Below are positions 5,471-8,874 of a stretch of 11,769 bases of DNA, piece by piece. The stretch lies in the IMG/VR virus record IMGVR_UViG_2740892233_000023. One strand, written 5' to 3'. The stretch's first letter is position 1, and each line of letters begins with the position of its first letter. Source of the stretch: a virus. Its lineage: Duplodnaviria; Heunggongvirae; Uroviricota; Caudoviricetes. The position numbers were made by a program, and so were the translations under genes. The notes under the pieces were generated by a model. That model worked only from the letters and a program-made list of their open reading frames with translations. It had not been told where the DNA came from and searched no databases.

Positions 5471-5528
5471 AAAAAGGGCGGCAGAGCAGTCACGGAGTAA
5501 AACTGATACCGCCAAACGTCACCAGAAA
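5471..5528 (-). ncRNA. dicF: DicF-like sRNA (copy at end of contig before N-run)
   Basis: Minus-strand sequence TTTCTGGTGACGTTTGGCGGTATCAGTTTTACTCCGTGACTGCTCTGCCGCCCTTTTT matches the remembered 53-nt DicF sRNA followed by a U-run. Located upstream of dicB-like in the same orientation. Confidence 0.7.
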
Positions 5529-5597: not shown

Positions 5598-5655
5598 AAA
5601 AAGGGCGGCAGAGCAGCCAAGGAGTAAAACTGATACCGCCAAACGTCACCAGAAA
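5598..5655 (-). ncRNA. dicF: DicF-like sRNA, variant copy (2 substitutions, CCGUGACUG to CCUUGGCUG)
   Basis: Second copy of the DicF-like sequence on the short segment between two N-runs. It may be an allele or paralogue brought in by contig concatenation rather than a second gene in the same genome. Confidence 0.55.
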
Positions 5656-5681: not shown

Positions 5682-5691
5682 NNNNNNNNNN
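5682..5691. other. N10 gap (junction between DicF-containing segment and twin-hairpin/cassette contig)
   Basis: Seen in sequence; no overlap detected across this junction. Confidence 0.95.
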
Positions 5692-5719
5692 AGAAATATC
5701 CTTTCAGTAAACTGTCAGT

Positions 5720-5769
5720 GCCGGATGTTCACCCGTGTCCGGCGCACGCACTCCACTTCACCCGTGGAG
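5720..5769. repeat. Twin GC-rich hairpins each carrying decamer TTCACCCGTG (GCCGGA-loop-TCCGGC and CTCCAC-loop-GTGGAG)
   Basis: Seen in sequence. A second copy at 6703-6752 carries CTCACCCGTG in both positions (the same T to C change in both repeats). No T-run follows. Confidence 0.5.
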
Positions 5770-5801
5770 AACTCCTTAATTACCAACCCTCAGGAGGGTG
5801 A

Positions 5802-6035
5802 ATGTTAAAATCAACTCTTATTGCTAAATGCCTTTATCAAAATCGCATGGTAAGCAGCATTTCAATAGGCGAGTCTGCAGTTAAAAGTATTTTCGAAGAG
5901 TACTTTCCCGGGCATGATTTTAATAAATGGAATACCAAATTACCGCCAGCAGTTTCAACGCGTATTCTGAAAGCAACCGAAAGAGCAAGTACAATTCGCG
6001 TTAACTATTTCATTAAAGATTTGTGGGATCTTTGA
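5802..6035 (+). CDS. Hypothetical protein (77 aa), AT-rich, inside variant-specific cassette
   Basis: Plus-strand ORF with GGAGGG SD 4-5 nt upstream of ATG. It is convergent with the 135-aa minus gene (23-bp 3' overlap) and no competing long ORF lies on the other strand. No recognisable family. Confidence 0.4.
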   Translation: MLKSTLIAKCLYQNRMVSSISIGESAVKSIFEEYFPGHDFNKWNTKLPPAVSTRILKATERASTIRVNYFIKDLWDL

Positions 6036-6420
6036 TATCCACAGAGCCTAAAGTATGTGCATATGGATGTGCTATTATGCGCCCTCGCAGATTTGCATCA
6101 TTTTCTAAATTCACTGAACGAAACAGGGCATCAACAAGGCTCTGTACAATGCAAAGGCAATCGAAGACTGTCGCCGTTTCTGTTTTGATTGATGAAAGAA
6201 CATGGCCATTCACGCAAACAGAAATTACCCGTTTATTAACATCGCTTTCCTGCTTTTGATTATCAGAACCATATAGCCCAGAAAAAGCATTGCGCACATT
6301 ACGAACCATATTATCGATGGTTTCTTTTTCTGCGGTACTAAGGTCAAGAGTAGCCAGTTGTGAACGAACTATATTCGATGCCATTTCCTGTAATGGCGTT
6401 GGTAAATCTTTAAATTCCAT
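6013..6420 (-). CDS. Hypothetical protein (135 aa), AT-rich, inside variant-specific cassette
   Basis: Minus-strand ORF with ATG at 6420 and GAGG SD 8 nt upstream. It follows a truncated ydfC-like 3' end by 22 bp. No TM segments or recognisable motifs. The plus-strand ORF 6023-6259 is treated as its shadow. Confidence 0.55.
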   Translation of the reverse strand: MEFKDLPTPLQEMASNIVRSQLATLDLSTAEKETIDNMVRNVRNAFSGLYGSDNQKQESDVNKRVISVCVNGHVLSSIKTETATVFDCLCIVQSLVDALFRSVNLENDANLRGRIIAHPYAHTLGSVDIKDPTNL

Positions 6421-6442
6421 TATTAGCCTCGTTGGTTAGCTA

Positions 6443-6513
6443 TTAACGTGGGTATGTAATCATTCTGGCAATGCTTAATGCCGCTGCTTTTTCCAGATTG
6501 GTGATATCCTGCT
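6443..6513 (-). CDS. 3' fragment of a ydfC-like gene, truncated by the N-run (variant contig)
   Basis: Near-identical to 6792-6862 (one mismatch in about 85 bp); encodes …ARMITYPR-stop. Only the C-terminal part lies before the N10 run. Confidence 0.4.
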
Positions 6514-6523
6514 NNNNNNNNNN
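6514..6523. other. N10 gap flanked by repeated ~85-bp segment (6429-6513 vs 6777-6862)
   Basis: Direct comparison of flanking sequence. Confidence 0.95.
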
Positions 6524-6702
6524 CTGGGGAAGGAATAACCCCGCCATACTTACCGCCGCGCCATTTCGCGGATTGCCACAACCGGAAGCGCACGGTCGAC
6601 GAAAATTTAACGACAGGCTATCTATGAACCAGCTACCTCGCCGTGCGCTTTCGCGTTATGGTCTGACTTTTCAGGGAAATATCCTTTCAGTAAACTGTCA
6701 GT

Positions 6703-6752
6703 GCCGGATGCTCACCCGTGTCCGGCGCACGCACTCCACCTCACCCGTGGAG
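6703..6752. repeat. Second copy of the twin hairpins (loop decamers CTCACCCGTG)
   Basis: Seen in sequence; lies in the contig variant without the cassette, between the segment upstream of dicF and the ydfC-like gene. Confidence 0.5.
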
Positions 6753-6791
6753 AACTCCTTAATTACCAACCTTAGCTTCGTTGGTTAGCTA

Positions 6792-7010
6792 TTAACGCGG
6801 GTATGTAATCATTCTGGCAATGCTTAATGCCGCTGCTTTTTCCAGATTGGTGATATCCTGCTCCAGAGCGGACAGATTTTCAGCCTGCTTAGCCCTGGCT
6901 TCATTGGCCCATTTCAGGTCCTGCGCTGCCTTAATTTTCTGGTGCATCCACTCATAAAGTTCATCATCGGTATAGTCTGGCGCGATGATGACGGGGTCTC
7001 GTTTCTGCAT
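6792..7010 (-). CDS. YdfC-like small coiled-coil protein (72 aa)
   Basis: Minus-strand ORF with AAGGAG SD 6 nt upstream of ATG at 7010. Its length and its position upstream of dicF/dicB match ydfC of the Qin dicB operon. Family call from synteny and length only. Confidence 0.6.
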   Translation of the reverse strand: MQKRDPVIIAPDYTDDELYEWMHQKIKAAQDLKWANEARAKQAENLSALEQDITNLEKAAALSIARMITYPR

Positions 7011-7082
7011 GTCGGCTCCTTGTGGTTAGCGTTGCCTGCTTTTTAACCACGTCAGGCGAGGTGGTATCCTCTGAGGGGTCTG

Positions 7083-7439
7083 TTACTCGAGAGGAAATTG
7101 GTTATGAATACAATCAAGTTTTCTTGCCCAGAATGTGGTGGCTAAGTCTTTGACACATCCTTTAAGCCGCAGGGCTCTGACAGTTTCGCGGGAGCCATCT
7201 GCAAAAATTGTGGTCACCTTGTAACTGAAGATGAGTCCTCGCAGTTCGATGACGAAATCGTTGACAATATCTTCGGTGCACTCACCAGAGACTTTCTGAA
7301 GTAAAGGCGCATACCGCTTAGTTACCGCTCTGATAATTCTTACCTGTCCGGCAATGGCGCTGATATCAATATAAAGCGCCATCGCTGTTTCTTTGCTGAT
7401 CCCTGGATGCCTTCCATTCTGATGTTTGACTTCGCCCAC
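7083..7439 (-). CDS. Hypothetical 118-aa ORF (GTG start); possibly only a mirror-frame shadow of the plus-strand zinc-ribbon ORF
   Basis: Uninterrupted minus-strand ORF with GAGGA SD before the GTG. It is in exact codon register with the plus-strand ORF 7104-7304, so one of the two is likely non-coding. It is on the same strand as the operon, which favours it; the repeated motif argues for the other strand. Confidence 0.3.
   Translation of the reverse strand: MGEVKHQNGRHPGISKETAMALYIDISAIAGQVRIIRAVTKRYAPLLQKVSGECTEDIVNDFVIELRGLIFSYKVTTIFADGSRETVRALRLKGCVKDLATTFWARKLDCIHNQFPLE
7104..7304 (+). pseudogene. Zinc-ribbon-like small protein (CPECGG … CKNCGH) interrupted by an in-frame TAA after codon 13
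   Basis: ATG at 7104 with AGAGGAAA SD 9 nt upstream. Translation is MNTIKFSCPECGG-stop-VFDTSFKPQGSDSFAGAICKNCGHLVTEDESSQFDDEIVDNIFGALTRDFLK-stop. Two CxxCG knuckles sit about 20 aa apart. The stop could be AAA to TAA (a single substitution). Confidence 0.35.
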
Positions 7440-7717: not shown

Positions 7718-8020
7718 ATGAAGATTATCTCAGTTAAAACACTCAGGGATTTTTGGGCGGAGAATCCTGATGCAGAACAACCGCTAAGGGCATGGGTGGA
7801 TGAGGCGGCAAAAGCTGACTGGAAAAGCCCAGCAGACATTAAGGCACAATACCGAACGGCCAGTATATTGAAAAACCGGCGCGTGGTATTCAACATAAAA
7901 GGTAATCATTACCGTTTAATTGTTGCAATTGCGTATCAGCGAGGATGGGTATTTGTTAAATTCATCGGAAACCACAAGGAATACGATGCTATTGATGCTG
8001 ATACCATCGAACTGGAGTAA
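7718..8020 (+). CDS. higB: HigB-family toxin (RelE/ParE-superfamily mRNA interferase), ~100 aa
   Basis: ORF from ATG 7718 with motif …VFNIKGNHYRLIVAIAYQRGWVFVKFIGNHKEYD… resembling HigB toxins. It lies immediately upstream of an HTH antitoxin-like gene (toxin-first order, typical of higBA). No clear SD; the TTG at 7673 is an alternative start. Confidence 0.75.
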   Translation: MKIISVKTLRDFWAENPDAEQPLRAWVDEAAKADWKSPADIKAQYRTASILKNRRVVFNIKGNHYRLIVAIAYQRGWVFVKFIGNHKEYDAIDADTIELE

Positions 8021-8022
8021 GC

Positions 8023-8382
8023 ATGAACATCAAACCTATTCGTACAGAGCAAGATTATGAAGCCGCGTTGCGTGCTGTTGAACCCATGTTCGACAATGAG
8101 CCCGAAATTGACACGCCTGAGGGGGATTTTTTTGAGGTGATGTGTTTGCTAATAGAGGAATATGAAAAAAAACATTATCCCATTGAGCCACCATCCCCAA
8201 TTGAAGCTATAAGATTTCGCATGGAACAGCAGGGGCTGACTGTGAAAGATTTGGAACCCGCAATTGGGAAAAAAAATCGGGTTTATGAGGTGTTGAATGG
8301 TACCAGAAGCCTTACGTTACCAATGATTCGCCGTCTTCATAATCAATTTGGTATCCCCCTGGAAAGCCTGGTTGGATTATAA
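8023..8382 (+). CDS. higA: HigA-family antitoxin (HTH, XRE-type), 119 aa
   Basis: ATG 2 nt after the higB-like stop, with GGAG SD. C-terminal HTH …GLTVKDLEPAIGKKNRVYEVLNGTRSLTLPMIRRLHNQFGI… resembles HigA antitoxins. Confidence 0.75.
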   Translation: MNIKPIRTEQDYEAALRAVEPMFDNEPEIDTPEGDFFEVMCLLIEEYEKKHYPIEPPSPIEAIRFRMEQQGLTVKDLEPAIGKKNRVYEVLNGTRSLTLPMIRRLHNQFGIPLESLVGL

Positions 8383-8398
8383 AATCTGCTAGTCATTT

Positions 8399-8447
8399 GC
8401 CTGATGCTCGTTCCAGAAAAGGAATGCATCAGGCAGTTTTGTTTTTC
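8399..8447 (+). terminator. Intrinsic terminator for the higBA-like transcript (overlaps the 3' end of the repressor gene)
   Basis: Stem GCCTGATGC / GCATCAGGC with inner TTCC/GGAA stem and AGAAAA loop, followed by AGTTTTGTTTTT on the plus strand. Confidence 0.55.
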
Positions 8448-8821
8448 TGCCGCAGTAACTCTTCAAGTTTCCGTTTATAGAAATCGCGTTTTTGCTCCAT
8501 ATCACGAATGATCTGCTCTGCGTCGCTTTGAGGTAACTCATCTAAAAGCGATATGATTTTTCGTTGTTGTTCTGTAAGTTGCGGTTGGTTGTCATTACTG
8601 GATACAGCCATTTTATCGCCGAGAGTTTCTTCTTCCATAAAGAACCAATGGACGGGATGTTGTGAGAGCTCTGCTAATTTTTCCAGTTTATCCATTCTTG
8701 GCATCACGCCTTTCAACCAACCTTGCACGGATTGGGGTTTTACACCAAGACGTCTTCCCAGCTCTGACTGGTTTATATTCAATTCCTGCAACACCTGCTG
8801 AAGGCGTTTTACAAAGATCAT
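8429..8821 (-). CDS. Prophage repressor, DicA/RacR-like (N-terminal HTH, no S24 peptidase domain)
   Basis: Minus-strand ORF; likely start is ATG at 8819-8821 with GAGGGG SD. HTH …NQSELGRRLGVKPQSVQGWLKG… and a C-terminal region resembling the DicA C-terminus (…LPQSDAEQIIRDMEQKRDFYKRKLEELL…). Divergent from a Cro-like gene. Confidence 0.8.
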   Translation of the reverse strand: MIFVKRLQQVLQELNINQSELGRRLGVKPQSVQGWLKGVMPRMDKLEKLAELSQHPVHWFFMEEETLGDKMAVSSNDNQPQLTEQQRKIISLLDELPQSDAEQIIRDMEQKRDFYKRKLEELLRQKNKTA

Positions 8822-8874
8822 CACCACCCCTCGTAAACTAGTTCCGCGATCCTACAGAAAAAATTGATAAGTGG

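Follow-up and report, generated by a model that had tools for sequence, protein, structure and literature searches.

The 11,769-nt stretch analysed here (IMG/VR record IMGVR_UViG_2740892233_000023, from a virus of the class Caudoviricetes), which we refer to as the window, carries a 634-bp insert in an early operon of the dicB/dicF type. The insert holds two convergent genes, one for a 77-residue protein that we call A and one for a 135-residue protein whose C-terminal part we call the B core. Comparison across genomes identified A together with the ~78-residue B core as the conserved unit, an old module of enterobacterial temperate phages. From the position of the two genes relative to repressor, operators and promoters in other genera, we propose, with a probability of about 0.4, that A and B form a cognate antagonistic effector/antidote pair of the prophage. 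We infer that A is made in lysogens and B only upon derepression or infection, and that the two proteins act on each other.

A convergent pair conserved across Enterobacterales

As proposed in an initial annotation made from the window alone, a 77-residue open reading frame (ORF) on the plus strand converges with a 135-residue ORF on the minus strand. We found the two to overlap by 23 nt at their 3' ends (Table 1). Our survey covered 249 loci carrying A. Among the 43 distinct A proteins that they encode, 32 are less than 90% identical to the window copy. A convergent B accompanies 41 of the 43 lineages across Enterobacterales. The 3' overlap is 23 nt long in 34 of them, 26 nt in four and 51 nt in one, and A is frameshifted in the other two. 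The two lineages lacking B are a copy at a contig end and a 43%-identical homologue outside a prophage, in a metagenome-assembled genome of Psychrosphaera sp. (locus L017, 3974-4228), where its neighbour is a large glycoside-hydrolase gene and the surroundings lack prophage genes; among the A-family members that we found, no other lies outside Enterobacterales prophages. Carriers of the module include enterohaemorrhagic E. coli (EHEC) O157, O26, O103 and O145, with hundreds of sequenced strains, as well as prophages of Klebsiella, Serratia, Salmonella, Citrobacter, Yersinia, Proteus, Dickeya and Xenorhabdus. B without A was found only in E. coli variants encoding a 201-residue protein, in which a C-terminal extension and a different 63-residue reverse gene stand in for A, again with a 23-nt overlap. 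Since the A/B-core pair with its 23-nt overlap is ancestral across genera, the 201-residue form is the derived one, and the idea that the 77-residue gene is a later insertion truncating a 201-residue gene was rejected.

Both A and the B core are maintained as proteins, because synonymous sites are saturated between genera (synonymous divergence, pS, ~0.72) while the nonsynonymous divergence (pN) amounts to 0.24 in A and 0.36 in the B core, corresponding to pN/pS ratios of ~0.3-0.5. Homologues of A keep its length at 55-72% identity in Klebsiella, Raoultella, Salmonella, Serratia, Yersinia, Morganella, Proteus, Dickeya, Xenorhabdus and Photorhabdus. AlphaFold2 (AF2) predicts A to be all-helical, with five helices and a predicted local distance difference test score (pLDDT) of 96.8, and the protein matches the PHROG family phrog_10348, of unknown function, over 77 of 77 residues at 1.1e-47. 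One source names A a dGTP triphosphohydrolase; BLASTP against K-12 Dgt gave E = 24, and we regard this label as baseless. Inspection of the alignment ruled out the string LIAKC in A as a lipobox.

The 135-residue protein is composed of two parts of different distribution. It matches phrog_1363 at 4.8e-47, residues 55-128 match phrog_23433 at 1.7e-8, and its PHROG matches separate into N-terminal and C-terminal families; a stand-alone B of Serratia matches phrog_23433 at 4.6e-17. Both families are labelled as of unknown function. By BLASTP, the B core is homologous to stand-alone partners of 75-80 residues in Dickeya and Serratia (35-43% identity, E 1e-13 to 1e-17). A B-core profile search found relatives across Enterobacterales, and an exhaustive HMMER scan of 1.84 billion proteins returned 72 clusters at 50% identity. 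The N domain is common to E. coli proteins of 124, 133, 137, 201, 208 and 212 residues with unrelated C-termini. In the AF2 model the protein consists of two domains joined by a disordered linker (residues 52-60), the N domain being a helical hairpin (helices 8-23 and 32-50) and the B core a beta-hairpin plus helices. The earlier view of a compact two-gene cassette therefore needs to be divided: both genes are real, as judged from pN/pS and from the pLDDT of the A model, but the cassette is not unitary because the 135-residue gene combines a locus-resident N domain with an ancient ~78-residue core. Likewise, the statement that neither ORF has a recognisable family stands for Pfam, NCBIfam and PADLOC, where neither window protein found a match, but not for PHROG. 

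Residues 8-31 of the N domain (window 6328-6399, minus strand) occur as two sharply distinct alleles, PTPLQEMASNIVRSQLATLDLSTAE versus PKEIQTIAATTLGDSLVKIDPAYTK, and residues 32-50 are conserved. The window has the allele found in other cassette types; most 135- and 201-residue proteins have the other one. The B core has further fusion partners. In Citrobacter (P0177, P0206-P0208 and P0218; locus L012, 4001-4420) a ClpX-type C4 zinc finger (PF06689) is fused to its N-terminal side; in P0217 the partner is a YdfC-like segment, and in P0222 a module that also makes up the C-terminus of the E. coli 133-residue N-domain protein. The small domains of this region are shuffled like beads. Two labels for B were considered and rejected. 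Alignment inspection excluded the B-core string ASGKT as a Walker A box, since its spacing is wrong and the E. coli copy lacks it. The N-type antiterminator of lambda has an N-terminal arginine-rich RNA-binding motif and is intrinsically disordered; B, considered because it comes first behind the early-left promoter, was rejected as such a protein, its N termini (MEKQMNGRRVEV, MSKSGRLVEV) having no arginine-rich motif and its core being predicted to be folded.

Regulatory layout outside E. coli

In Serratia, Citrobacter and Dickeya the module lies directly downstream of a CI-type repressor gene, with B on the repressor strand. Upstream of B in one Serratia locus (L005), the repressor-gene terminator is followed by a promoter (TTGACG-16-TAAACT) that is flanked by two 16-nt palindromes, GTTTGTATATCAAAAC and GTTTACATAACAAAAC, and these are found again, three times, in the cI-cro intergenic region. 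The Citrobacter locus L012 has the identical 18-mer, AAGGTAACAAAAGGTACC, both in its cI-cro region and just upstream of B, and in Dickeya (L002) palindromes of the ATACCCTAGGGTAT type are found in the cI-cro region and upstream of B. By the layout of these sites, B is shown to be the first gene of a repressor-controlled early-left operon, behind a putative pL-type promoter, in three immunity types.

The other end of the module has a different signal. The motif TGnTAnnnT, an extended -10 element, lies 39-43 nt before the ATG of A in 27 of 27 unique non-E. coli elements and also in Dickeya, whose sequence upstream of A is otherwise unrelated to that of the other elements. It is the sole invariant block in the alignment of A-upstream elements. 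This consensus suggests that outside E. coli A has its own promoter, which faces the early-left operon. Most lineages have an inverted repeat, GCCTG-N14-CAGGC, that overlaps the A promoter and could be an operator. The A-upstream element was rejected as a structured RNA or riboregulator; its RNAalifold consensus was -1.7 kcal/mol with a covariation term of 0.

The same combination of inverted repeat and extended -10 (GGTGGTAT) also matches the window at 7033-7070 on the plus strand (E = 4e-8), 34 nt upstream of a small reverse-oriented ORF (7104-7303, plus strand) for a zinc-ribbon protein (CPECGG...CKNCGH). This ORF has an in-frame TAA at codon 14 (7143-7145), and RefSeq instead annotates a 99-residue ORF on the opposite strand. 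In Citrobacter (L012, 4612-4680 and 5517-5591, both minus strand) the element precedes both A and a 148-residue reverse gene belonging to phrog_5286. The element has the appearance of a portable promoter module that serves antisense-oriented genes within early-left operons.

Since B comes first behind the repressor operators, it would be made immediately on derepression or infection, and since A has its own opposed promoter, it could be made while the early operon is repressed. A may be a lysogen-expressed effector, most plausibly one that blocks the development of incoming phages. B would then act as an immediate-early antidote, freeing from A either the resident phage or an infecting phage with its own B. 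In prophages A was never found without B, whereas B was found without A, which is the pattern expected if A is harmful without B. Taken together, this asymmetry, the earliest expression slot of B and the swapping of forward/reverse pairs as units at the E. coli site are best accommodated by an effector and its antidote.

The occupied site in E. coli and its surroundings

The window consists of seven contig pieces strung together by N10 runs and represents left-arm sequence of lambdoid prophages of the EHEC type. The insert-bearing piece (5692-6513) is bounded by the N10 runs 5682-5691 and 6514-6523. Ungapped comparison with the following piece matched 5695-5788 to 6678-6771 and 6423-6513 to 6772-6862, each with two mismatches. 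These data bore out the earlier description of ~630 bp present between shared landmarks in one variant only, and gave a length of 634 bp with a boundary uncertain by ~2 nt. The insert starts 11-13 nt before the ATG of A (11 bp had been given) and ends at the ATG of the minus-strand gene, as had been described; the C/T flank difference that creates a GAGG Shine-Dalgarno sequence only in the insert-bearing variant was also found (Table 1). Its GC content had been put at ~36% and was measured as 39.1%; ORF A alone has 36.3%. The surroundings are at roughly 50%, with 51.5% in the left 97 nt, 42.9% in the right 91 nt and 54.7% across 6524-6770.

At least 80% of the 822-bp insert-bearing piece was present in 646 of 5,426 complete E. 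coli genomes. At least 2,880 genomes have the empty junction; K-12 derivatives are among them, and there it corresponds to the ydfC-dicF interval of Qin. The identical sequence is annotated in a prophage integrated at ompW, and Escherichia phage Evi and curated records of PPompW/Stx2a prophages also contain the cassette. In strain E2865 the occupied form lies at 1.744 Mb, and an empty one at 1.224 Mb. Since both forms lie at separate positions in this one strain, the two pieces are best explained as paralogous prophages collapsed by the assembler rather than as alleles or a chimera. The initial annotation was correct that two forms exist, but they are paralogous prophage copies and not variants of one locus. 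Its further claims of a presence/absence polymorphism, of low GC and of a position inside a dicB/dicF-type early-left operon were supported.

The suggestion of an accessory hotspot was also substantiated, as at least four other cassettes occupy the same E. coli position, each made of a forward gene and a small convergent partner. N-domain proteins of 133, 201 and 208 residues are encoded downstream of ydfC or ydfA and upstream of dicF/dicB, with reverse-oriented partners of 76, 63 and 69 residues, respectively, and all components of these cassettes fall into PHROGs of unknown function. The insert is best read as one allele of a hypervariable accessory hotspot between ydfC and dicF in EHEC lambdoid prophages of the PPompW type.

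The arrangement of the E. coli copy is derived relative to that of other genera. Here the module sits in mid-operon after ydfC, with B joined to the N-terminal domain of the hotspot, and the cassette boundary 11 nt before the ATG of A implies that the ancestral A promoter is gone. The dicBF operon has been described as a single polycistronic unit transcribed from dicBp and processed by RNase III as well as RNase E, with no internal promoter (10.1101/2023.04.14.536235; PMC5069750). Because it forms one transcript, the N-B fusion should be co-transcribed with ydfC, dicF and dicB, and this transcript must then read through the antisense strand of A; A itself may be weakly expressed or silent in E. 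coli. The papers on the Qin dicBF operon describe no genes between ydfC and dicF (PMC5069750; 10.1101/2023.04.14.536235).

Around the insert, the window has the context of a Qin-type dicBF operon, with ydfC, dicF and dicB in the same order and on the same strand and a DicA/CI-type repressor. The DicB match (PF05358) has an E-value of 6e-37, and the minus strand also holds a DUF1482 gene, a RecE-like exonuclease, an excisionase and an integrase. The exonuclease region is likewise N10-joined and partly duplicated (2100-2221/2232-2400, 2400-2620/2631-2860 and 2860-3160/3171-3420), and a 1,058-residue ORF that spans its pieces is a concatenation artefact. The two dicF copies score 76.7 and 71.5 bits against RF00039, both above the Rfam threshold. 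Their sequences diverge in the loop and the upper part of the stem (UCCGUGACUG versus UCCUUGGCUG), in keeping with a source genome that has several prophages with dicF. The interval from the prophage repressor to the early-left genes holds a HigB-type toxin gene (PF09907, 5e-33; 7718-8020, plus strand) and an HTH_3 antitoxin-like gene (8023-8382, plus strand), both oriented against the operon; in lambda this slot is occupied by rexAB.

The left landmark of the insert consists of two hairpins that are common to the occupied site, the empty site and K-12 Qin. TTCACCCGTG lies in the loop of each, and a search of Rfam returned no match other than dicF, the twin hairpins included. In 13 E. coli viral contig loci (L129 and 12 others) the two hairpins are merged into one (…GCCGGATGTTCACCCGTGGAG…), and this single-hairpin flank resembles the product of a deletion between the direct repeats, TTCACCCGTG, of the two loops. 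We also considered whether the twin-hairpin flank is a diverged form of the A-upstream element, with the empty site arising by deletion; this was not supported, as a promoter model (R1) built from 20 non-E. coli elements gives no match there.

Table 1. Positions of the insert, its two genes and the surrounding landmarks in the window
Feature	Position	Strand	Basis or remark
Insert, 634 bp	5789-6422		Present in piece 5692-6513; absent at junction 6771/6772 of the next piece
Gene A, 77 residues, WP_000920491.1, phrog_10348	5802-6035	+	ORF; annotated hypothetical; reads against the early operon
Shine-Dalgarno AGGAGG of gene A	5792-5797	+	Sequence
135-residue gene, WP_000394552.1, phrog_1363	6013-6420	-	N domain-B core fusion; operon strand, directly downstream of ydfC
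Shine-Dalgarno GAGG of the 135-residue gene	6427-6430	-	6428 is C here; T (GAAG) at empty site, 6777
N domain, residues 1-52, MEFKDLP...AFSGLY	6265-6420	-	Alignment, PHROG cross-matches, structure model
B core, residues ~58-135 plus stop	6013-6249	-	BLASTP, profile searches, structure model
23-nt 3' overlap of A and the 135-residue gene	6013-6035		ORF coordinates
ydfC, right landmark, phrog_1744	6792-7010	-	Upstream gene of the same operon strand; RefSeq annotation of identical sequence
dicF small RNA gene, downstream landmark	5476-5527	-	Rfam RF00039
dicF variant, second copy	5603-5654	-	Rfam RF00039; other contig piece
Two hairpins, left landmark	5720-5743 (GCCGGA...TCCGGC); 5751-5769 (CTCCAC...GTGGAG)		Sequence; outside the A/B module
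HTH_3 prophage repressor	8432-8827	-	Repressor domain match

The proposed effector and antidote against other readings

Several known systems resemble the A/B pair in part. The Qin dicBF operon (ydfABC-dicF-dicB) is the same host locus, its K-12 junction being the empty site; unlike the window piece, K-12 has no cassette. Lambda rexAB, sieB/esc and stk of 933W are lysogen-expressed exclusion genes of lambdoid immunity regions. Like them, the A/B pair is made of patchy accessory genes in or near the early-left and immunity region, and A likewise appears to have a promoter independent of the repressed operon; unlike them, A opposes the early operon and is obligately paired with the first early gene, and there is no similarity in sequence or fold. 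The BstA prophage defence protein reportedly achieves cognate self-immunity through aba, a DNA element within its own gene. The logic proposed for A and B is the same, namely a prophage defence that must be neutralised when its own prophage goes lytic, but B is a protein rather than a DNA element and the proteins lack homology to BstA.

Toxin-antitoxin modules in prophage early regions offer a further comparison, among them type II pairs such as HigBA (window 7718-8382) and the type I system RalR/RalA of Rac. The A/B pair shares with such modules that it is a compact cognate two-gene unit swapped as a block, that A is never alone, and that its convergence with 3' overlap is typical of some type I loci. 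The differences are that A and B are not co-transcribed, show no toxin or antitoxin homology, and are both predicted folded proteins rather than a peptide and an RNA. Type II systems have co-directional, co-transcribed genes, whereas the A/B genes are convergent in all 41 lineages and match no known toxin or antitoxin family. For type I, both partners are soluble-looking, predicted-folded proteins under purifying selection, and only the convergent 3' overlap resembles that class. Morons are autonomous promoter-gene units in prophages. The presence or absence of the module between collinear prophages (646 versus at least 2,880 genomes), and its GC below that of the flanks (39.1% versus ~50%) are moron-like, and so would be an own promoter in the ancestral form, whose element is shared with other reverse-oriented genes; the extended -10 motif is invariant in non-E. 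coli lineages and has no counterpart in the window. The module differs from a moron in that no terminator was found, that the unit is a pair including a gene on the operon strand, and that the E. coli copy lacks the promoter.

A number of observations weigh against an effector/antidote pair. No toxin or antitoxin family in Pfam or NCBIfam matched the window proteins, 30 A relatives or 36 B-core relatives. PADLOC-DB v2 gave zero matches for the window proteins and single chance-level matches among the 30 and 36 family members, no fold relative of either protein was found in the Protein Data Bank (PDB) or among viral folds, and the profile hidden Markov models of both families had no match among PDB sequences. 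The defence, anti-defence or exclusion role that had been suggested for the pair therefore remains conjecture, with no component of known defence systems matching either family. A ROS/MucR match in Pfam (E = 0.088, below the cut-off) and a YjdP match were attributed to chance. The model of the 135-residue protein, including B, is of moderate confidence (pLDDT 72.8, predicted template modelling score 0.36). The promoter assigned to A outside E. coli is read from a consensus motif, and the strict A-B linkage could simply reflect the physical overlap of two small genes. Within E. coli, no copy has an extended -10 in the 110 nt upstream of A, neither the window nor the uninterrupted locus yielded a consensus promoter for A, and the promoter model R1 has no match at 5700-5800 or 6690-6771 at E <= 10. 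Distinct changes in A within E. coli amount to 7 synonymous versus 11 nonsynonymous, the latter including G23S and P36S/T at family-invariant positions, which hints at relaxed constraint. Because A has no detectable promoter and has acquired substitutions at invariant sites, the pair may not operate as a pair in the window.

This last group of results bears on a narrower alternative, that the window copy is a decaying remnant in which the N-B fusion, carried on the ydfC-dicF-dicB transcript, would be the only product still made and A would be kept along unexpressed. The boundary 11 nt before the ATG, the lack of any extended -10, sigma-70 consensus or R1 match, the changes in A and its whole replacement in the 201-residue variants all favour such decay. 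Both genes do have the strong Shine-Dalgarno sequences noted initially, but for A this goes together with no detectable promoter in E. coli. Against decay, A is intact with its AGGAGG sequence in essentially all 646 genomes and truncated copies are rare, consensus scans overlook many real promoters, and antisense transcription from downstream could still express A. We consider the remnant somewhat unlikely. An elaborated form of the effector/antidote proposal holds that the locus encodes an undescribed two-protein prophage system in which A blocks phage development and B is a protein antidote conferring self-immunity and counter-defence, and that the hotspot is a library of at least four analogous effector/antidote pairs with a common N-terminal adaptor; taken as a whole, this more specific version is rather unlikely.

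A different alternative is that the two genes are accessory regulators of the lysogeny switch. B would be pro-lytic, acting like an antirepressor or in host takeover, while A would buffer leaky B, and convergent transcription would dampen the early-left promoter and stabilise lysogeny. The position of B directly behind repressor operators in three immunity types agrees with this, as does the fact that the module of non-E. coli prophages lies within the immunity region or adjoins it. About 600 bp separate the A promoter from the early-left promoter that it faces, and the window shows no intrinsic terminator between the two genes or beyond them (other genera gave inconsistent weak matches). The inverted repeat over the A promoter, if it is an operator, would fit as well. 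However, neither protein has a helix-turn-helix or a known regulator fold, the E. coli module works or persists far from the immunity region without an A promoter, and the module is missing from most related prophages, which argues that it is not a core component of the switch. Such a regulatory role is improbable on balance.

Two independent accessory genes, linked only by adjacency and 3' overlap, could also give rise to this arrangement, with B an early host-modifying gene and A an unrelated moron under its own promoter. The 5' end of B recombines freely, having acquired the N domain, the ClpX-type zinc finger, the YdfC-like segment and others; the same portable promoter module drives unrelated reverse-oriented genes; and B occurs without A in the 201-residue variants. 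Against independence, A was never seen without B in 32 distinct non-E. coli lineages from at least 10 genera, despite saturated synonymous divergence and frequent recombination to either side. Moreover, the overlap geometry is conserved, and other cassettes of the E. coli site are also swapped as forward/reverse pairs. We regard independent genes as an unlikely explanation. Finally, an assembly chimera or spurious ORFs, which the make-up of the window from short N10-joined pieces with duplicated variant segments might suggest, are refuted, as many finished EHEC chromosomes contain the 822-bp piece uninterrupted and at 100% identity, isolated or curated phage records contain it as well, and both encoded proteins are conserved across genera.

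Accessory genes at a prophage hotspot are a well-known kind of thing. A search of the literature for the accessions, PHROG identifiers, locus and architecture found no description, and a convergent module in which the first early-left gene faces a gene with its own promoter appears undescribed. Should A and B prove to be merely two unrelated accessory genes, the locus would represent ordinary prophage mosaicism. All components are annotated as hypothetical and have no known fold, yet the pair is widespread in EHEC and in enterobacterial prophages. With its anatomy and regulatory logic now defined, the A/B pair becomes a testable candidate for a new module of phage-phage conflict or lysogeny control, and the ydfC-dicF interval is defined as a compact hotspot where cognate pairs are exchanged.

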